Shown in pieces: positions 3,100 to 30,743 of a DNA stretch of 33,991 nt. Source of the stretch: Candidatus Nomurabacteria bacterium (GTDB lineage: Bacteria; Patescibacteriota; Minisyncoccia; Phycocordibacterales; UBA1006). Each line of letters opens with the position of its first letter. The first letter of the stretch is position 1. The notes beneath the pieces were generated by a model. The model saw nothing but the letters and a program-made list of their open reading frames with translations, was not told where the DNA came from and did not search any database. Location: the NCBI GenBank assembly GCA_029882015.1, contig JAOULM010000001.1:1-33991 (forward strand), written 5' to 3'. Made by a program: the position numbers and the translations under genes.

Positions 3100-3615
3100 A
3101 TGGAAACTACATTGTCATTAGAAAATTTTTGTAAAAAATATTATTCATTTGTTTATAACAGATCTTTGCGTTTAACAAAAAATAAAGATAAAGCATTGGA
3201 TTTAACGCAGGATGTTTTTGTCAGAGTTTGTATATCATTTGATACTTTGGATCAAAGTCTGGCTATATTCGGCTGGCTTGCCAAAATAACAAAAAATAGG
3301 TTTTTAGATATTGCAAGATCTGATGAAGCAAAAAAAAGAAAAAGAGAACACATAGATGATATTGGCGAGTGCGCCAGCAAACTCTACTCGCCAGAACGAC
3401 CTATTTATCTAGATCTAGACATAGAAGATTTTATTATGATGCTGAATGAAAACGGTAACCATGTGGAATCTTGTCTTTATCTTGATCTTCAGAATTACGA
3501 CAAGGTTGCAGAACATTTGGATATCCCTGTTGGCACTGTAAAGAGCAGAGTACACAGACAGAGAAAATTAGCACAAAATAAATTTCCTTTGTACAGAAAA
3601 AATTTTAATATTTAA
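3100..3615 (+). CDS. RNA polymerase sigma factor, sigma-70 ECF-like (regions 2 and 4 only)
   Basis: Region 2-like LDLTQDVFVRV...WLAKITKNRFLDIAR. Region 4 HTH LDIPVGTVKSRVHRQRKLA. One of the few genes with a strong SD (AAAGGAGG, 3081-3088). Confidence 0.8.
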   Translation: METTLSLENFCKKYYSFVYNRSLRLTKNKDKALDLTQDVFVRVCISFDTLDQSLAIFGWLAKITKNRFLDIARSDEAKKRKREHIDDIGECASKLYSPERPIYLDLDIEDFIMMLNENGNHVESCLYLDLQNYDKVAEHLDIPVGTVKSRVHRQRKLAQNKFPLYRKNFNI

Positions 3616-9613: not shown

Positions 9614-9976
9614 ATGACAACAGTAACTAATACAAAAGAATACACTATTGATGCCTCGGGTAAAAAACTGGGTCGTGTTGCCAGCGAGGCAGCTATGATT
9701 TTGCGTGGAAAAAATTCACCAGATTTTACACCTAACAAAGTATCAGGAAACAAGGTGCACGTTATCAATGCGTCAAAAATCGATTTGGCAGATGTGAAAT
9801 TGTTAGACGAGTACATGAGCTATTCTGGATACGCAGGTGGTCAAAAACGCGAAACACGTGGGCATTTGATCGACCGCAAGGGCTACGCTCCTGTATTCGA
9901 AAAAGCAGTCTACGGAATGTTGGCGTCAAACAAATTGCGAGCGCCATTGATGAAAAATCTAACTATTACCGAATAA
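9614..9976 (+). CDS. rplM: 50S ribosomal protein L13 (short, 120 aa)
   Basis: IDASGKKLGRVASEAAMILRGKNSPDFTPN...VHVINASKI...GMLASNKL. Confidence 0.9.
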   Translation: MTTVTNTKEYTIDASGKKLGRVASEAAMILRGKNSPDFTPNKVSGNKVHVINASKIDLADVKLLDEYMSYSGYAGGQKRETRGHLIDRKGYAPVFEKAVYGMLASNKLRAPLMKNLTITE

Positions 9977-9981
9977 TTTAT

Positions 9982-10392
9982 ATGTCAGCAGTAACTAAAA
10001 AAACAAAATACATTCCAGCAATCGGACGACGTAAAACTGCCAGCGCACAGGTACGTTTGTTCGAGGCTGCTAAAACTGAAGTCATCATCAACGATAAAAA
10101 ATTGTCAGAATATTTTAAAACTGATGATCAGATCAAAATCGTAAACGATGCTTTTAATACATTGAAATTGGATCAAGAATTCAAAGTAACCGTATTGGTA
10201 AAAGGTGGGGGATTACATGCCCAAGCCGAAGCCGTACGTCACGGAATCTCACGTGCATTGGTAGAACGCGACGAAGCATCACGTGTTCCATTAAAAAAAG
10301 AAGGGTTCCTAAAACGTGACCCACGTTCAAAAGAACGAAACAAACCAGGACTCCGCGGAGCACGTCGTGCCCCACAGTGGTCAAAACGTTAA
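9982..10392 (+). CDS. rpsI: 30S ribosomal protein S9
   Basis: GRRKTASAQVRL...GGGLHAQAEAVRHGISRAL...RDPRSKERNKPGLRGARRAPQWSKR. Confidence 0.95.
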   Translation: MSAVTKKTKYIPAIGRRKTASAQVRLFEAAKTEVIINDKKLSEYFKTDDQIKIVNDAFNTLKLDQEFKVTVLVKGGGLHAQAEAVRHGISRALVERDEASRVPLKKEGFLKRDPRSKERNKPGLRGARRAPQWSKR

Positions 10393-10410
10393 AACTCAGA
10401 AATCAAAAAA

Positions 10411-10434
10411 ACCACCCTCAGGTGGTTTTTTCTT
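10411..10434 (+). terminator. rho-independent terminator after rpsI
   Basis: ACCACC-ctca-GGTGGT followed by TTTTTTCTTT, preceded by an A-run. Confidence 0.7.
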
Positions 10435-10450
10435 TGCTCTGGTAAATATA

Positions 10451-10780
10451 TCCTCCTCCCCTATGTAGGGGAGGTGCCGAGGAACGAGGCGGAGGGGTAT
10501 CAGACATAACCACCCAAACCCCCGTCTTCCCGGGCTCCGACCCGGGATCCAGAAACATCCCTACCAACCCTCAAGTGTCATCCCCGCGCAGACGGGGATC
10601 TTGTTTTAATTCTTTTCTTTTTTCTTGGCAAAAAAGAAACAAAAACCCAAGGCCTGTACCGAACTCTCTCAGAATTATCTAAAACTACATTCGTTATTTT
10701 TCAGGGGGCACTACGTTAGCCTGCTGAAAAATACCTGCGGACACTCATTCCATTTTGAAATTCTGGTTCGTTCGATAGGG
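10451..10780 (+). repeat. mosaic structured intergenic repeat, copy A (modules H1, H2, H3, E)
   Basis: H1 is 10451-10500. H2 (10522-10553) is identical to 14959-14990. H3 (10611-10641) is identical to 14992-15022. E (10647-10780) aligns with 15108-15242. An extra hairpin ATCCCCG/CGGGGAT lies at 10580-10599. Confidence 0.85.
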
Positions 10781-10811
10781 GTCGAATCCTCGCGCTAAAT
10801 TTTGGAATATT

Positions 10812-10839
10812 AAAAAACCCTCGCAATAGCGGGGTTTTT
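10812..10839. terminator. bidirectional hairpin terminator at the end of the minus-strand PaaX-like/DKNYY operon
   Basis: A6-CCC(T)CGC-aata-GCGGGG-T5. Confidence 0.6.
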
Positions 10840-11212
10840 ATTTACCTGGAACAACAAATGTTTCTGGGTCACCATCAATTTTTTTGCCATAATAATAAAC
10901 GTGGTTTTTATCTTTGGCGTAGTATCCATCGTCTAAAATTTCAAAAGTTTTTGCATGGGCTGACCAAATACGGAAAGTTCTCCACCCGGTAGAAGAATTG
11001 TAGTGATAGTAGGTATAGAGTACTTTGTTTCTTTGAATCGTGTAGAGGGTGTCAGTCTTTATAGTATTAGCCATATCAACGAGACGTTCATTCCTTTTTG
11101 ATAGCAAGAAAAGAGTAAAGGCAATAATTAAAATAAAAAGTACAAAGCTCAAAAATACTTTTGAAAGTGTCCGCACTCCATTTCTAATTATATTTGGTCC
11201 TTTCATATTCAT
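10838..11212 (-). CDS. small membrane-anchored DKNYY-domain protein (paralog 1)
   Basis: N-terminal TM VFLSFVLFILIIAFTLFLL. C-terminus YAKDKNHVYYYGKKIDGDPETFVVP matches the DKNYY repeat signature. Confidence 0.7.
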   Translation of the reverse strand: MNMKGPNIIRNGVRTLSKVFLSFVLFILIIAFTLFLLSKRNERLVDMANTIKTDTLYTIQRNKVLYTYYHYNSSTGWRTFRIWSAHAKTFEILDDGYYAKDKNHVYYYGKKIDGDPETFVVPGK

Positions 11213-11251: not shown

Positions 11252-11623
11252 TTATTCAGGAACAACAAAAGTGTCTGGGTCAGCCCCTTGGATTCTTTTA
11301 TTGAATTGATAAACAAAATTTTTGTCTTTCGCGTAGGAATTATTGATGATTTCTAGAGATTTGATATCAACACGGCGCAATTTTTGTAAGTATAGATTTA
11401 GCGGGGAACCTCCTTCTCGACGGACGTAAAAAGCTTTTCTTTTTGAGACAACATACTGGCTTTCTTGTGCATCTGGGAAGACTTTTGATAAATAATAGCC
11501 ATCTCGTACAGCAGTCGATATATATGTCAAAAAAAGTGCAACAATAGCAAGGCCAAATAGTCCAACAGGGACAAGTAAAATTATCCCAATTATCTTTCCT
11601 ATTTTCTTGTAATTCTTTTTCAT
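11252..11623 (-). CDS. small membrane-anchored DKNYY-domain protein (paralog 2)
   Basis: N-terminal TM IIGIILLVPVGLFGLAIVALFL. C-terminus YAKDKNFVYQFNKRIQGADPDTFVVP. Clear paralog of 10838-11212. Confidence 0.7.
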   Translation of the reverse strand: MKKNYKKIGKIIGIILLVPVGLFGLAIVALFLTYISTAVRDGYYLSKVFPDAQESQYVVSKRKAFYVRREGGSPLNLYLQKLRRVDIKSLEIINNSYAKDKNFVYQFNKRIQGADPDTFVVPE

Positions 11624-11640
11624 ATTTCAAATATACCACA

Positions 11641-12180
11641 CTACCCCCAATATACCTTTCTAAATTGTTTTTCAGTATCAAAATCGGCGTGGTTGGTGAC
11701 GATGATGTTGAATTCATCGGTTAGCTCGAGATCCTTTTTCATATTTTCCAGCATATGCTCGAATGGGTAGGGGCTAATCCAGACGCTGTTTTTCAGCTTG
11801 GCGAATTTGGCCTTTTTCAGGATATAGCGGATAGCATTGCGGAGCTGTTTATTATCCTCGGGAACGTCAATAATCACCATACGCCAATGCCCATCCCACG
11901 ATAGGGGAATCAGGCTTTCATCCGATGACAGGCGTGCAGAGCGCAAGCTGTGACGTCCTGTGGGGGTCAGGCGCATCATCTCGTCTTCTAATTCAATATC
12001 TCCTGATTTGGTCAGGTTTTTCAGGCTCCGGGTCACTGCATATTTCAAATCCGAGCTCCGATCGTCTATTTCACTGAATAACCCCTCGATGTGGCTGTTC
12101 AATTCATCAGAGTTGCTGGATTCATTGGAACCCAGGAATTTCAAGATTTTTTCCTTGAGATTAAGTCGTTTTGGTGTCAT
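11641..12180 (-). CDS. PaaX-like transcriptional regulator (wHTH plus PaaX C-terminal-like domain)
   Basis: WDGHWRMVIIDVPEDNKQLRNAIRYILKKAKFAKLKNSVWISPYP resembles the PaaX-family core WDGxWxxVxFDIPE...R..LR..L...GF..L..SVWxSP. Confidence 0.7.
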   Translation of the reverse strand: MTPKRLNLKEKILKFLGSNESSNSDELNSHIEGLFSEIDDRSSDLKYAVTRSLKNLTKSGDIELEDEMMRLTPTGRHSLRSARLSSDESLIPLSWDGHWRMVIIDVPEDNKQLRNAIRYILKKAKFAKLKNSVWISPYPFEHMLENMKKDLELTDEFNIIVTNHADFDTEKQFRKVYWG

Positions 12181-12237: not shown

Positions 12238-12266
12238 TTGTCAAAAATATGAGAATGGTTTATACT
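12238..12266 (+). promoter_or_regulatory. promoter of grpE (TTGTCA-17-TATACT); ATG 12279 is 12 nt after the -10
   Basis: Hexamers at 12238-12243 and 12261-12266. Confidence 0.55.
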
Positions 12267-12970: not shown

Positions 12971-14881
12971 ATGTCAAAAATAATTGGAATCGATCTAGGG
13001 ACAACAAACAGCGCCGTCGCAATCATCGAGGGGGGGCAACCAAAAATAATTGAAAACGCCGAGGGAAACCGTACCACTCCGTCGATTGTTGCTATTGCAA
13101 AAAATGGTGACCGTTTGGCTGGTGAATTGGCAAAACGCCAAGCCATCACCAACCCACAAAATACTATTTACGGAATCAAACGATACATGGGGCACAAATA
13201 CGAAGACGACGTTATCAAAAAAGACGTCGACGTGGTGCCGTACACTATCAAAAAAGGTAAAGACGGCGGAGCTATGATAACTATGGGCGACAAAGATTAT
13301 CGCCCCGAGGAAGTTTCAGCAATGATCTTGCAGAAAATCAAAGCCGACGTCGAAGCCAAAACAGGTGAAAAAATAACCGAGGCCGTAATCACCGTTCCGG
13401 CGTATTTCAACGATGACCAACGTAAAGCCACAATCGATGCGGGTAAAATCGCGGGACTCGATGTTAAACGAATCATCAACGAACCAACTGCTGCCGCATT
13501 GGCATACGGGTTCGACAAAAAGACTGACGAAAAAATCGCCGTATACGATTTCGGTGGGGGTACTTTTGATATCTCAATTTTGGAGGTAGGCGCAGACGTC
13601 GTCGAGGTAAAATCTACAGGTGGTGATAGCCATATGGGGGGACGTGATATTGACCAGGCTATTATCAAATGGATCGGAACTGAATTCAAAAAAGAATCAG
13701 GTATCGATATCACTGCAGACAAATTGGCACTGCAACGTTTGGACGAGGCAGCCGAAAAAGCCAAAAAGGAATTGTCATCAGCGCCAGAAACTGAAATCAA
13801 TATTCCATTTATTACATCAGATGCGAACGGTCCAAAACACTTGTTGTTGAAATTGACTCGTGCTCAACTGGAAGACTTGGCAATGCCATACATCGAAAAA
13901 TCAATCAAAATCACAGGGGACGTACTAAAAGATTCTGGATTCAAAGCTGGCGAAATTAACCAGGTTATCTTGGTGGGAGGACAAACACGTATGCCAAAAA
14001 TCCAAGAAGAGGTTCAGAAACTATTCGGTCAAGAACCAAACCGAACGATTAACCCCGACGAGGTAGTCGCCGCAGGAGCCGCCGTACAGGCCGGAGTCTT
14101 GCAGGGTGACGTCAAAGACGTGTTGTTGCTCGACGTTATTCCATTGTCGCTGGGAATCGAAACCATGGGGGGTGTCGCAACAAAATTGATCGAAAAAAAT
14201 GCAACGATCCCAACATCACACAGCCAGGTATTCTCGACCGCAACAGACAACCAGTCATCAGTCGAGATTGTCATCGCACAGGGAGAACGACCCATGGCGG
14301 CCGACAACAAACCATTGGGACGATTCGTATTAGATGGTATCGCGCCAGCGCCGCGTGGTATCCCACAGGTAGAGGTAACGTTCGACGTTGATGCCAACGG
14401 AGTGCTGAGCGTGTCTGCCAAAGACAAAGCAACCGGCAAAGAAAACAGTATCCGTATCGAGGGATCATCAGGACTATCAGACGAAGAAATCGAAAAAATG
14501 AAAGCCGACGCGGAAACACACGCCGACGAAGATGCCAAGAAAAAAGAAAACGTAGAATCTAAAAATATGTTAGACACTGCTATTTTCACCGCAGAAAAGG
14601 GGCTAAAAGACAACGCAGACAAAATTAGCGACGAGGTCAAAACCGCAGTCCAAGAAAAAATCGATGCAGCGAAAACTGCCAAAGATTCGGATGATATGGA
14701 CGTAGTAAAAAAAGCCACCGAAGAACTGGCAACCGAAATGCAAAAAATCGGCGAGGAAATGGCAAAAGCTGGTGAAAAAACAGAATCTGATTCAGACGAT
14801 GTCAGCCCAGCAGGGGACAAAGTCGAAGACAAAGAGGGAAATGCAGATAATGTAACTGACGCGGAAACAGAAGAGAAATAA
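12971..14881 (+). CDS. dnaK: molecular chaperone DnaK (Hsp70)
   Basis: [72 protein letters not shown]. Start taken at the conserved [14 protein letters not shown]. Confidence 0.98.
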
Positions 14882-14889
14882 CACAACCA

Positions 14890-15242
14890 TCCTCCTACCC
14901 TATGCAGGGGAGGTGCCCGTAGGGCGGAGGGGTATTAAACATAAAATACCAAACCTATCCGTCTTCCCGGGCTCCGACCCGGGATCCAGAATCTTTTCTT
15001 TTTTCTTGGCAAAAAAGAAACACCCGATGAAATATATTCGCTACCGCTCATTATTTCCCTGGATAAAAACAATATAGTCACTATGTTCCTTATTGTTAGT
15101 TAAAAATCCAAGGCCTGTATCTCGCTCTCTCAGAATTTCTAAAACTCTCGTTCACTATTTTTCAAGGGGCACTCCGTATAGCCTTTTGAAAAATTAAAAA
15201 CGTTCACTTTCGTTTTGAAATTCTGGTTCGCTCGATAAGGGC
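14890..15242 (+). repeat. mosaic structured intergenic repeat, copy B (modules H1, H2, H3, insert, E)
   Basis: Same module order as copy A. It has an ~85-nt unique AT-rich insert (15023-15107) between H3 and E. Confidence 0.85.
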
Positions 15243-15287
15243 CAAAGGACGTGTTAGACTATGGAATCTAAATAGCACCACCCCCGA

Positions 15288-15308
15288 CCCCTCCTCAAAG
15301 AGGAGGGG
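15288..15308 (+). repeat. perfect 9-bp hairpin CCCCTCCTC-aaa-GAGGAGGGG upstream of dnaJ (related to the H1 stem motif)
   Basis: Read directly from the sequence. The 3' arm is SD-like but ends 17 nt before the ATG at 15326. Confidence 0.7.
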
Positions 15309-15325
15309 AGGGACACTTGAAACTT

Positions 15326-16207
15326 ATGTCAAAAGATTACTACAAAACCCTGGGGGTAGATAAAGGCGCATCGGATGCTGAAATCAAAAAAGCATTCCAT
15401 AAACAAGCGCACAAATATCACCCAGATAAAAACGGCGGAGACGACAAAAAATTCAAGGAAGCCAACGAGGCTTACCAGACTTTGTCGAACAAACAAAAAC
15501 GCCAGCAATACGACCAATTCGGTTCAGACGGTCCCAATATGGGTGGCGGGGGGTTTGGTGGTGGTTTTGGTCAGGGTGCACAGTTTGATTTTGGTGGAGT
15601 CGACATGGATGATATCTTGCGTCAGTTTGGTTTTGGTGGCGGTGGATTCGGATTCGGTGGACAGCGCGTACCTCGCGGTCGTGATTTCCAGGTAACCGTA
15701 CAAATCGAATTCCGCGACATGGTATATGGAACAGAAAAAACAGTAGATGTGCCTGATATTATCGATGGAAATGACACAAATAAAAATCGTCAAATCAAAA
15801 TCAATATTCCAGCCGGAATTCAAAACGGACAAACCATGCGCATGGATGGTGCTGGCGAGAAATTGACGGGTGGCGAACCAGGAAACCTCTTTTTAAATAT
15901 TGTGGTTAACAAGCACAAAACATTCCACCGCGAGAGTATGCATTTGATTATGAATCATGATGTCAAAATAACCGAGGCTGTCCTAGGTGGGGAATTCGAT
16001 GTGGAAATGGTAGATGGCAAAAAATTGTCAGTCAAAATCCCAGCAGGTTTGGAATCAGGTCAGGTTCTGCGTGTCCGTGGCAAGGGAATCCAAGCCGGCA
16101 CATTCCACAATGGAGATCTATTAATCAAAACAAATATTTTAATACCAAAAAAACTATCCAAAAAAGCCAAAAAAGCTATCGAGGAGTTGAAAGAAGAAGG
16201 AATGTAA
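15326..16207 (+). CDS. dnaJ: J-domain co-chaperone, class B/CbpA-like (no Cys-rich zinc-finger domain)
   Basis: J domain DYYKTLGVDKGASDAEIKKAFHKQAHKYHPDKN, G/F-rich linker, C-terminal substrate-binding domains. The protein has no cysteine at all, so CxxCxGxG repeats are absent. Confidence 0.9.
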   Translation: MSKDYYKTLGVDKGASDAEIKKAFHKQAHKYHPDKNGGDDKKFKEANEAYQTLSNKQKRQQYDQFGSDGPNMGGGGFGGGFGQGAQFDFGGVDMDDILRQFGFGGGGFGFGGQRVPRGRDFQVTVQIEFRDMVYGTEKTVDVPDIIDGNDTNKNRQIKINIPAGIQNGQTMRMDGAGEKLTGGEPGNLFLNIVVNKHKTFHRESMHLIMNHDVKITEAVLGGEFDVEMVDGKKLSVKIPAGLESGQVLRVRGKGIQAGTFHNGDLLIKTNILIPKKLSKKAKKAIEELKEEGM

Positions 16208-27223: not shown

Positions 27224-28642
27224 ATGCGAACACTAATAAAAAACTTAAATACACAAAAGGGAGAGACCGTAACAATAAACGGTTGGGTTCACGTTGCGCG
27301 GGATCAGGGGAAAATGGCTTTCTTTGATTTTCGTGACATGACCGGAACCGTACAGGGTGTCGTATTCGGAAAACCAGAGGTTTTGGAAATTGCCAAAACC
27401 TTGCGTCCAGAATGGGTTGTTGCCGTAACTGGTATTGTGAACGAACGACCCGAAAAAATGGTCAAAGCTGGCGTATTAAACGGCGACATCGAATTGGAAA
27501 TTACAGAAATTACAGTATTGAACACAGCGACGACGCCAGCATTTGAATTGACCGAAAGCACTATAGGAATCAACGAACGTGTGCGATTGGAAAATCGCTA
27601 TGTTGATTTGCGAACTGATCGCTTGCAGAAAAACCTGCGCATGCGTCACGCCGTGGCGAAACTGACTCGGGATATTTTGGATGACGAGGGATTCACAGAA
27701 ATCGAGACTCCGTTGTTTACGAAATCAACTCCCGAGGGGGCTCGCGATTATGTCGTGCCTGCGCGTCTGTACCCAGGACAGTTTTACGCACTGCCACAGT
27801 CACCTCAGCAGTATAAACAGCTATTGATGGCTGGGGGCATCGAGCGGTATTTTCAGTTTGCAAAATGTATGCGCGACGAGGATACCCGTGGTGACCGTCA
27901 ACCAGAATTTACACAGATGGACATGGAGATGTCATTCGCGACCGAAGACGAAATCATGGCAATCAACGAAAAGGTCTTGATAGCTATTGTTGAAAAACTA
28001 TATCCAGAAAAACGAATCCAAACAGTTCCATTCCCACGCATTACGTATGCCGAGGCTATGGAAAAACATGGTAGCGATCGACCTGATCTACGTGAAGACA
28101 AAACCGACGACAATCTATTGGCGTTTGCGTGGGTGGTGGACTGGCCATTTTTCGAAAAAACTGCGGACAGCGATGATCCACAGGCAACAGGAGAATGGAC
28201 GTTTACGCATAACCCATTTTCATTGTCGAAACCAGAACATATCGAGAACTTGAAAAACAAAACAAACATCGGTGACATCATGGCGTCACAGTACGACATT
28301 ACATTGAACGGACTGGAAATCGGTGGGGGATCAATCCGAGCCCATGATCCAGAAATCTTGAAATCTATTTTGCAGATTTTGGGACACAGCGATGAAAAAA
28401 TTGAAAAGAATTTCGGTCACATGTTGCGCGCATTGGGATCAGGAACACCACCACACGGGGGAATCGCGTGGGGGTTTGACCGATTGATGATGATCCTGCA
28501 AAACGAACCAAACATCCGCGAGGTAATCGCATTTCCAAAAACCGGCGAAGGTCGCGATCTGATGATGGATTCACCGTCACCAATTTCAGACCAGCAGTTG
28601 GGGGAATTGAATATTAAATTAGATTTACCAGTAGAAGAGTAG
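27224..28642 (+). CDS. aspS: aspartyl-tRNA synthetase, bacterial-type sequence but lacking the GAD insertion domain (472 aa)
   Basis: OB-fold N-terminus, FYALPQSPQQYKQLLM, PEFTQMDMEMSF, FTHNPF, GGGSIR, PPHGGIAWGFDRL. Confidence 0.95.
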   Translation: MRTLIKNLNTQKGETVTINGWVHVARDQGKMAFFDFRDMTGTVQGVVFGKPEVLEIAKTLRPEWVVAVTGIVNERPEKMVKAGVLNGDIELEITEITVLNTATTPAFELTESTIGINERVRLENRYVDLRTDRLQKNLRMRHAVAKLTRDILDDEGFTEIETPLFTKSTPEGARDYVVPARLYPGQFYALPQSPQQYKQLLMAGGIERYFQFAKCMRDEDTRGDRQPEFTQMDMEMSFATEDEIMAINEKVLIAIVEKLYPEKRIQTVPFPRITYAEAMEKHGSDRPDLREDKTDDNLLAFAWVVDWPFFEKTADSDDPQATGEWTFTHNPFSLSKPEHIENLKNKTNIGDIMASQYDITLNGLEIGGGSIRAHDPEILKSILQILGHSDEKIEKNFGHMLRALGSGTPPHGGIAWGFDRLMMILQNEPNIREVIAFPKTGEGRDLMMDSPSPISDQQLGELNIKLDLPVEE

Positions 28643-30582: not shown

Positions 30583-30602
30583 TAGAATAAAGCCATCATA
30601 GC

Positions 30603-30728
30603 CCTCCTCCCCTATGTAGGGGAGGTGCCCGTAGGGCGGAGGGGTATCAATATATAAACACCTTAAAAACAATACCCCTCAGTCTCACTCGTACCTCGTT
30701 CGACAGCTCCCCTACATAGGGGAGCAGG
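30603..30728. repeat. GC-rich palindromic repeat pair (forward unit 30603-30647, inverted long unit 30672-30728) filling the scpA-scpB spacer
   Basis: The forward unit is near-identical to 14890-14935. The inverted unit is near-identical to 28649-28707. The architecture matches the pair inside mnmA. Confidence 0.85.
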
Positions 30729-30743
30729 ACATTTTTAATTTTT

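Follow-up and report, generated by a model that had tools for sequence, protein, structure and literature searches.

A covarying hairpin unit at the dnaK-dnaJ junction of related Patescibacteria, with a diverged duplicate after rpsI and a separate family of REP-like repeats

The spacer between dnaK and dnaJ in a metagenomic contig of the Patescibacteria, or Candidate Phyla Radiation (CPR), contains an undescribed structured unit of about 200 nucleotides (nt) that covaries between several lineages carrying it at the same junction. The stretch analysed here, called the window throughout, spans 34 kb (33,991 nt of contig JAOULM010000001.1) and holds the spacer twice, once between dnaK and dnaJ (copy B) and once after the ribosomal protein gene rpsI (copy A, after rpsI at 9982-10392). 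It is well supported that the spacer is a mosaic in which three kinds of part are combined: a solo arm of a GC-rich repeat resembling repetitive extragenic palindromes (REPs) and REPINs (H1), a small hairpin (H2), and an old, conserved core consisting of a second hairpin and a long imperfect hairpin (H3 and E, together H3+E). There is also good support for H3+E being a structured element that is new to the databases searched, is shared by related CPR genomes and is gained, lost and swapped in the manner of a cassette. The order and positions of the modules after rpsI given in a first-pass annotation of this DNA were all recovered, and its description of the region as a mosaic of modules is apt. 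An RNA-level reading of E is plausible but unproven.

H3+E was found in the dnaK-dnaJ spacer of six lineages, whose DnaJ shares about 60% identity with that of the window and which we denote by locus handles (L062/63/65, L064, L068, L071, L073 and L079), in the same orientation in each. The unit has a constant order: a hairpin with a U5-7/A5-7 stem, an invariant A-run (A5-7), an imperfect hairpin of about 130 nt and, after a further 3-10 nt, the motif TGnTA(A/C/G)ACT. In L062 the hairpin H3 begins directly at the dnaK stop codon, and for this reason H3+E is taken as the minimal unit; in L079 an H1-like module occupies the same relative place before it. A covariance model (CM) built from five copies recovers the elements of the relatives as well as both copies in the window. 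A scan of about 230 kb of clade DNA with this model detected no further E; the 34-kb window has two copies, and each relative locus has a single one, at an unchanging site. This distribution lends no support to the family of small RNA (sRNA) genes that had been proposed from the sequence of the window, and copy A lies between terminators with no promoter detected.

On the + strand E folds as a single long imperfect hairpin that outperforms its shuffled counterparts in both window copies, with free energies of -43.2 kcal/mol for copy A (z -3.4) and -46.6 kcal/mol for copy B (z -5.5). The compensatory replacement of G10704:C10724 in copy A by A15165:T15186 in copy B, on which the first-pass annotation had based its suggestion of a maintained structure, was confirmed and is accompanied by a second full double change at alignment columns 12:123 (A-T versus G-C). 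The segments CAGAATT and AATTCTG were also seen to flank the inner hairpin in both copies, as had been described. With the fold of copy B as reference, the two copies differ in 12 of the 88 paired columns and in 18 of the 48 unpaired ones (Fisher p=0.002), a weak test given that 6 of the 10 affected pairs are broken in copy A and that the fold of copy A as reference yields p=0.14. Since the two copies of the window are weak evidence by themselves, the strong evidence for covariation is that from the relatives. In an alignment of eight copies from seven genomes (a seven-sequence version was also run) 79.9% of the cells are paired, and 28 of 42 pairs change on both sides compared with 18.5±2.4 in shuffles, none of 500 of which reaches 28; these counts overstate independence, as the eight sequences are related and the alignment was fitted to the model structure. 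The register control stays clear despite this fitting, with slid registers giving 4-9 such pairs, and the covariation score is 0.49 versus 0.26 for shuffles.

The closing pairs of H3 covary in the same way (TTC/GAA, GTTAC/GTAAC, TCAC/GTGA and ATAC/GTAT). Beside the covarying stems there is conserved sequence, namely the A-run, two GTTCAC boxes and the inner stem TATNTTTCA/TGAAANAT. The boxes face each other in the fold and form G-C and U-A pairs, a UC/UC mismatch, and A-U and C-G pairs, and a similar C-UC-G/C-UC-G loop is found in the outer stem. The outer arms are complementary in each lineage and lineage-specific in sequence (GGCCTGTA.., CAACCACACC.., CCAACCCGC..), with compensatory changes, unlike the conserved termini of MITEs (transposable elements of the miniature inverted-repeat type). 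Conserved secondary structure with compensatory changes across species, by which structured cis-regulatory RNAs are recognised, is therefore present, and the earlier proposal that structure and not sequence alone is maintained is supported by the eight copies from seven genomes.

The features of the dnaK-dnaJ spacer (copy B) are the following.

14887-14938, + strand: H1_B, solo H1 arm of variant 2, starting 6 nt past the dnaK stop codon; 96% identical to the arm at 30603-30647
14959-14991, + strand: H2_B, identical to H2_A
14992-15022, + strand: H3_B, stem-loop at 14996-15019, identical to H3_A
15023-15101, + strand: 79-nt insertion found in copy B only, between H3 and the A-run and E; in the relatives and in copy A, H3 directly abuts the A-run and E
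15112-15243, + strand: E_B, rod-like hairpin of 132 nt at the ancestral dnaK-dnaJ position, both GTTCAC boxes intact; CM score 153 bits
15252-15260, + strand: TGTTAGACT, motif similar to an extended -10 element and located just 3' of E, here and in every E-carrying relative
15288-15308, + strand: GC-rich hairpin CCCCTCCTC-aaa-GAGGAGGGG, of H1 style in its sequence, in the dnaJ leader

The features of copy A are listed in the same manner.

10406-10431, + strand: intrinsic terminator of the rpsI operon (11-bp stem, then a T-run) that insulates copy A on its left
10449-10502, + strand: H1_A, solo arm of the GC-rich H1 family, variant 1; 94% identical to the arm at 169-221 in mnmA; contig L002 ends inside it
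10521-10554, + strand: H2_A, hairpin TCCCGGG-ctccga-CCCGGGA followed by TCCAGAA; identical to 14959-14991
10555-10610, + strand: 56-nt insertion found in copy A only, between H2 and H3; unique in the window and among the clade loci
10611-10650, + strand: H3_A, U6/A6 hairpin (stem-loop at 10615-10638) and A-rich linker; six relatives have homologous hairpins whose closing pairs covary
10651-10783, + strand: E_A, rod-like imperfect hairpin of 133 nt, derived, GTTCAC boxes degraded; CM score 130 bits
10793-10815, + strand: tail homologous to the dnaJ-proximal motif, with CGCTAAATT instead of TGTTAGACT, then TGGAAT.T.AA, where homology between the copies ends
10819-10834, no strand assigned: bidirectional terminator that belongs to the DKNYY gene running convergently (10838-11212, - strand) and insulates copy A on its right

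In L061, which is devoid of E, TGTGTTAAACTAAG is still found 8 nt upstream of the dnaJ start codon, and the TGnTAAACT motif is thus assigned to dnaJ, with E lying upstream of it; judged by its sequence, TGTTAGACT is probably a dnaJ promoter of the extended -10 type. The insertion specific to copy A contains the hairpin ATCCCCG-cgcaga-CGGGGAT (10580-10599), which appears terminator-like because CTTGTTTT comes directly after it. A promoter scan of copy A detected no sigma-70 promoter or promoter-like site. Hexamers resembling a -35 element in the loops of H3 (TTGACA, TTGTCA and TTGGCA) have no -10 partner, and a promoter of its own for copy A was rejected. Copy A lies between two + strand terminators and a bidirectional one and is probably decaying or idle. 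A positional analogue of H2 precedes H3 in L073 (ATCCTGAA..TTCAGGAT, then TTCAAGAA).

The first-pass annotation had described the copy after dnaK as a twin. The duplicate is real, and the dnaK copy is the ancestral one, H3+E being an occupant of this spacer across the clade, whereas the rpsI copy is derived. Identity between the two copies is complete for the small hairpins, at 33 of 33 positions for H2 (10521/2-10554 and 14959-14991) and 31 of 31 for H3 (10611-10641 and 14992-15022), and E aligns with scattered substitutions (10641-10786 with 15102-15246; 76-85% identity per block and about 75% over the whole unit). Since homology between A and B extends from H1 to about 15 nt beyond the TGnTAnAnT motif, nearly the whole spacer has been copied and not E alone, and it is well supported that nearly all of the dnaK-dnaJ spacer (14887-15275) has a diverged duplicate, specific to this lineage, at 10449-10815. 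Copy A is considered derived and copy B ancestral because copy A is further from the outgroups (24.5 bits versus 44.9 bits for copy B in an nhmmer comparison to L068, and 61% versus 70% identity to outgroups) and has lost both GTTCAC boxes as well as the TG of the motif. By CM and nhmmer on the clade loci, none of the relatives carries a copy after rpsI. The insertions private to each copy, 56 nt between H2 and H3 in copy A and 79 nt between H3 and E in copy B, came after the duplication.

H1_A and H1_B fall into different H1 subfamilies, H1_A being nearest to the mnmA copy (94%) and H1_B to the copy at 30603 (96%). The left junction of the duplicate therefore lies in a multi-copy repeat, which is consistent with ectopic recombination or copying anchored on a pre-existing H1. 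A simple segmental duplication, in which A equals B, was rejected as the full story in view of these subfamilies and of a divergence that is uneven, at 0% in H2 and H3 versus about 25% in E. H2 and H3 together are identical at 64 of 64 positions, yet the duplicate around them has diverged by 18-25%. At a divergence of about 25% the chance of such identity is 0.75^64, or about 1e-8, so that it is not due to chance; from the sequences it could reflect either short-patch gene conversion or a strong sequence-specific constraint. An exact 18-nt match to the 5' half of H3 also occurs inside dnaK (14533-14550, - strand), in a stretch coding for a lysine- and glutamate-rich segment, and is probably a coincidence of low complexity.

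The explanation that we tentatively favour, with somewhat less than even confidence, is that H3+E is a cis-acting intercistronic RNA rod that uncouples dnaK from dnaJ or stabilises it relative to dnaJ. H3+E would be transcribed within the grpE-dnaK-(dnaJ) message and would act in cis as an intercistronic rod of double-stranded RNA, which may serve as a processing site of the RNase III type, as a hairpin protecting the 3' end of the dnaK mRNA, or as both. Such processing or protection would uncouple dnaK from dnaJ, and dnaJ would use its own downstream promoter of extended -10-like type. The unit would be dispensable, with strains exchanging H3+E as a cassette, probably through homologous recombination at the dnaK and dnaJ flanks, and copy A would have arisen by ectopic copying anchored on the H1 repeat. 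A bolder version, which we consider quite unlikely, would have H3+E as an RNA (or single-stranded DNA) cassette that homes to the dnaK-dnaJ junction, a horizontally exchangeable riboregulator of chaperone to co-chaperone stoichiometry in organisms whose regulatory repertoire is minimal, with selection on the rod and its UC/UC loops and, in the genome of the window, the beginning of a spread to a second operon end.

Beyond the fitting of the alignment to the model structure, which itself tells against the RNA rod, a number of observations count against it. The unit is absent in L061, L070, L074, L075, L076, L080 and L069 and is patchy on the DnaJ tree. L073, which carries E, and L074, which does not, are 95-97% identical over 14 kb, and their alignment breaks exactly at the spacer, which measures 232 nt in one of the two and an unrelated 61 nt in the other; because such near-identical strains differ in E, any host function must be dispensable. 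Variants of E are incongruent with their flanks, as in L062 and L071, whose flanks are 87/84% identical as compared with 58% for E. The wobble pairs of the fitted alignment show no G·U strand bias, with 18 G·T cells versus 13 A·C cells. Free energies on the + and - strands are -25.0/-46.5 kcal/mol in L064, -40.9/-56.6 in L073 and -40.1/-45.1 in L062, the window copies being slightly better on the + strand, and pairing has seemingly been kept in copy A although it appears to be transcriptionally insulated.

In the main rival, E, together with H3, is a selfish or neutral palindrome of the ERIC/MITE kind that has come into the dnaK-dnaJ spacer. It would spread through recombination or by some unknown mode of transposition, and the complementarity of its arms would be kept by DNA-level processes such as template switching at quasipalindromes and not by selection for an RNA function. 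An imperfect palindrome of 130 nt has a size typical of ERIC elements and MITEs (PMC10969869, PMC3184786), and the clean replacement of the spacer between L073 and L074, the incongruence with host genes, the lack of wobble bias and the complementarity retained in an apparently untranscribed copy A all fit it, as do a second copy at an unrelated intergenic site in one genome, the proximity of a true multi-copy family (H1) and the presence of a different, unrelated inner hairpin between the same boxes in L071 and L073. On the other hand, a mobile palindrome is hard to reconcile with a single copy per relative locus at a fixed site and orientation and none elsewhere in the roughly 230 kb, and the window contains no transposase. 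In none of the eight copies is there a flanking direct repeat that could be a target-site duplication, whether of E or of H3+E, and the spacers of L061 and L074, which lack E, show no single-copy target. Ends bound by a transposase should stay conserved, whereas the arms differ between lineages. The conserved unpaired and mismatched boxes suggest purifying selection, as does the 83% identity of E among L079, L064 and L062, which is above that of their coding flanks (72-79%). We regard the selfish palindrome as a close rival, somewhat less likely than the RNA rod; of the composite MITE suggested by the first-pass annotation, the multi-copy inverted repeat applies to H1 only, and E, with its covarying arms and no target-site duplication, falls outside it. 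The dnaK-dnaJ junction is a cassette-like, general hot spot of insertion, and exchange probably proceeds by homologous recombination through the conserved ends of dnaK and dnaJ.

Two further alternatives concern the strand and the nucleic acid on which the unit acts. Read on the - strand, the unit would present the reverse complement of E, a T5-7 run and the reverse complement of H3, and could be a strong terminator against antisense or convergent transcription into dnaK (or into rpsI in the case of copy A) or an antisense sRNA of about 150 nt with a long hairpin and a U tail. The A-run that separates H3 from E does not vary among the eight copies and reads on this strand as a T-run, whereas on the + strand E is followed by no T-run and by nothing terminator-like. 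Folding on the - strand is markedly better in L064, L073 and L062, the - strand of copy A lies downstream of the convergent DKNYY gene, and by direct reading the -10-like sequences TAACAT/TAGCAT are found 3-9 nt before the hairpin. We nevertheless hold a functional - strand to be distinctly improbable: the conserved T5-7 run starts 3-5 nt past the stem and does not abut it (the scan is unable to score hairpins whose internal loops are long), folding of the window copies is better on the + strand, no -35 element or match to a consensus promoter was found, and the putative -10 is the reverse complement of the motif that is kept in the E-less L061, and hence belongs to dnaJ and not to E. Very improbable, in our estimate, is that E acts as double-stranded or cruciform DNA, a platform for protein binding placed upstream of the dnaJ promoter, in which two GTTCAC boxes lie at a distance of about 52 bp and the DNA could be curved by phased A-tracts. 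The spacing of the boxes is 52 bp in copy B of the window, L068 and L079, T6/A6/A6 tracts lie upstream, E ends 3-10 nt before TGnTAAACT, and the lack of an RNA strand bias would fit a role at the DNA level; against this, the spacing is 58 bp in the variant of the L073 type, the stems covary freely, which is unusual for an operator, dnaJ of L061 retains the motif without E, and the conserved promoter region of grpE, in the same operon, has no such boxes. Their absence there also led us to reject the boxes as a heat-shock operator.

In its form and setting E resembles the enterobacterial repetitive intergenic consensus (ERIC) and RU-1 elements (about 127 bp), being a non-coding imperfect palindrome of about 130 nt in a transcribed operon spacer that gives a long RNA hairpin (PMC3184786, PMC2229807, PMC10969869). 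Like ERIC, it is polymorphic in its presence at orthologous sites, and some variants have replaced or inserted internal segments. The likeness is one of behaviour only, and given the CPR host and the unrelated sequence no homology to ERIC is expected. Unlike ERIC, E occurs in one or two copies, is fixed at dnaK-dnaJ across lineages and comes in every case with the U6/A6 hairpin and the A-run. Enterobacteria have long dnaK-dnaJ spacers, differential levels of dnaK and dnaJ mRNA, and the sRNA tpke11 within the spacer (PMC12077118). E is comparable as a structured element between the genes of a pair for which differential expression from a single operon is known, where a long hairpin could set differential stability (PMC12077118, PMC4423207). 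It differs from the tpke11 spacer in having no Rfam match, in its length (about 200 nt versus a spacer of 85 nt) and in being dispensable between strains, and its function is putative. RNase III processing hairpins of the phage T7 type are rod-like and lie between cistrons; by analogy the rod of E, predicted to have symmetric internal loops and likewise placed between cistrons, would resemble them in form.

The genomes of CPR bacteria are small and are regarded as poor in repeats and regulatory RNAs. In the window, which comes from such a genome, a REP-like repeat occupies at least five sites and is translated at one of these, within mnmA. If the unit does control the ratio of dnaK to dnaJ, it would be among the first lineage-specific cis-acting RNAs proposed for the CPR, and if it is selfish, palindromic elements would persist and move even in the streamlined genomes of episymbionts. 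The sister strains L073 and L074, with and without E, constitute a natural experiment.

H1 is a GC-rich family separate from E, which is not a member of it, and has seven arms in the 34 kb, which are distributed over five sites, standing solo at three of them and forming inverted doublets at the other two. The sites outside the two spacer copies are as follows.

169-274, + strand: H1 inverted pair in frame within mnmA (open reading frame (ORF) 1-984); the ORF stays open, with about 35 extra residues
28643-28705, + strand: solo H1 arm of opposite orientation, lying 3' of the gene that ends at 28642
30601-30730, + strand: full inverted H1 pair between scpA and scpB, about 126 bp long; L078, an independent contig, begins within it

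A short palindromic unit that occurs as singlets and as inverted doublets in many copies defines REPs and REPINs, and H1 has this arrangement, as a GC-rich hairpin of about 50 nt found solo (10449, 14887 and 28643) or in short-spaced inverted doublets (169-274 and 30601-30730) (PMC3116915, PMC3733652). REPs and REPINs are mobilised by RAYT transposases (PMC3116915, PMC3733652); no gene for a RAYT (Y1 transposase) was seen within the window. Unlike a REP, the doublet in mnmA is translated and in this respect is nearer to the RPEs of Rickettsia and the QMITEs of Coxiella (PMC5896051). In the product of mnmA, a tRNA 2-thiouridylase, the insert TTSSSPDAGEVPRHEAEGYQKTNTPQPFGLPPYIGGQA is placed between GHYAQV and RFQLLRG. 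The E-less spacer of L069 has another GC-rich palindromic module in the style of H1 (3190-3250, - strand; CCCCCTCTGTTCTGCTTCGC...CCTCCCCCTACTCTAGGGGGAG), from which it follows that repeats of the H1 type occur in other lineages of the clade. Copies of H1 mark the ends of contigs from independent assemblies (L002 and L078), and the repeats explain why assemblies break here.

Database searches returned no known family for the unit. Rfam gave no match at gathering score on the window, and at E-values up to 5-10 only terminator look-alikes and chance matches to microRNAs in copy A, copy B and L068; tpke11 was not among the Rfam matches up to an E-value of 5 in the spacer of copy B. A hidden small ORF was rejected, as the reading frames of A and B are not conserved. 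The 18-mer TTTTGAAATTCTGGTTCG, used to look for E elsewhere in genome contigs, gave 56 matches, two of them in Saccharibacteria contigs, and all were attributed to chance. Four patterns for E and H1 gave only chance matches in viral contigs, and a profile HMM (hidden Markov model) of E run with nhmmer over the fetched loci found no copy. Look-alikes of attC, the DnaA box, parS and sso were dismissed by eye because the motifs are not common to all lineages.

The rpsI protein of the window is encoded in two further public assemblies, ENA contig L001 and Logan contig L002. L001 is identical to the window over 6.4 kb save for one mismatch, at 10711, whereas L002 stops 88 nt past rpsI, all 88 nt being exactly as in the window. 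Searches with the exact proteins encoded at the ends of the window extended the sequence by only about 1.5 kb. The nearest homologues of the DnaJ of the window are only about 60% identical, and the more distant named ones are annotated as Paceibacterota, Parcubacteria or Patescibacteria. DnaJ of this clade (15326-16207 in the window) consists of J and C-terminal domains only (PF00226 and PF01556), without the zinc finger, and is hence CbpA-like; some records of the Joint Genome Institute name it 'curved DNA-binding protein'. Gene order is kept in the relatives, running from rpsM...rpsI through variable genes and a PaaX_M-like regulator on the - strand to grpE, dnaK and dnaJ. Two tandem paralogues of the DKNYY family (10838-11212 and 11252-11623, both - strand) adjoin copy A, and the region from rpsI to the PaaX-like gene holds different genes in the relatives. 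The PaaX_M (Cas2-like) domain protein, of 179-189 residues and encoded at 11641-12180 (- strand) in the window, is divergent from grpE in every relative (L061-L079); it occupies the usual position of hrcA and, on that placement, is a candidate heat-shock regulator of the clade. Strong conservation is seen in the grpE promoter that the relatives share, CTTGTCAAAA-N-TATAAT. In the window a canonical promoter, TTGTCA-17-TATACT (12238-12266), overlaps the ATG at 12249 of the listed grpE ORF, so that the true start of grpE is probably further downstream. Small genes are found in the dnaK-dnaJ spacer of two other relatives: L080 carries an ORF for a four-helix bundle resembling 23S_rRNA_IVP/bAvd (253-558), and L062 an ORF of 112 residues with a weak match to InPase (9655-9993).

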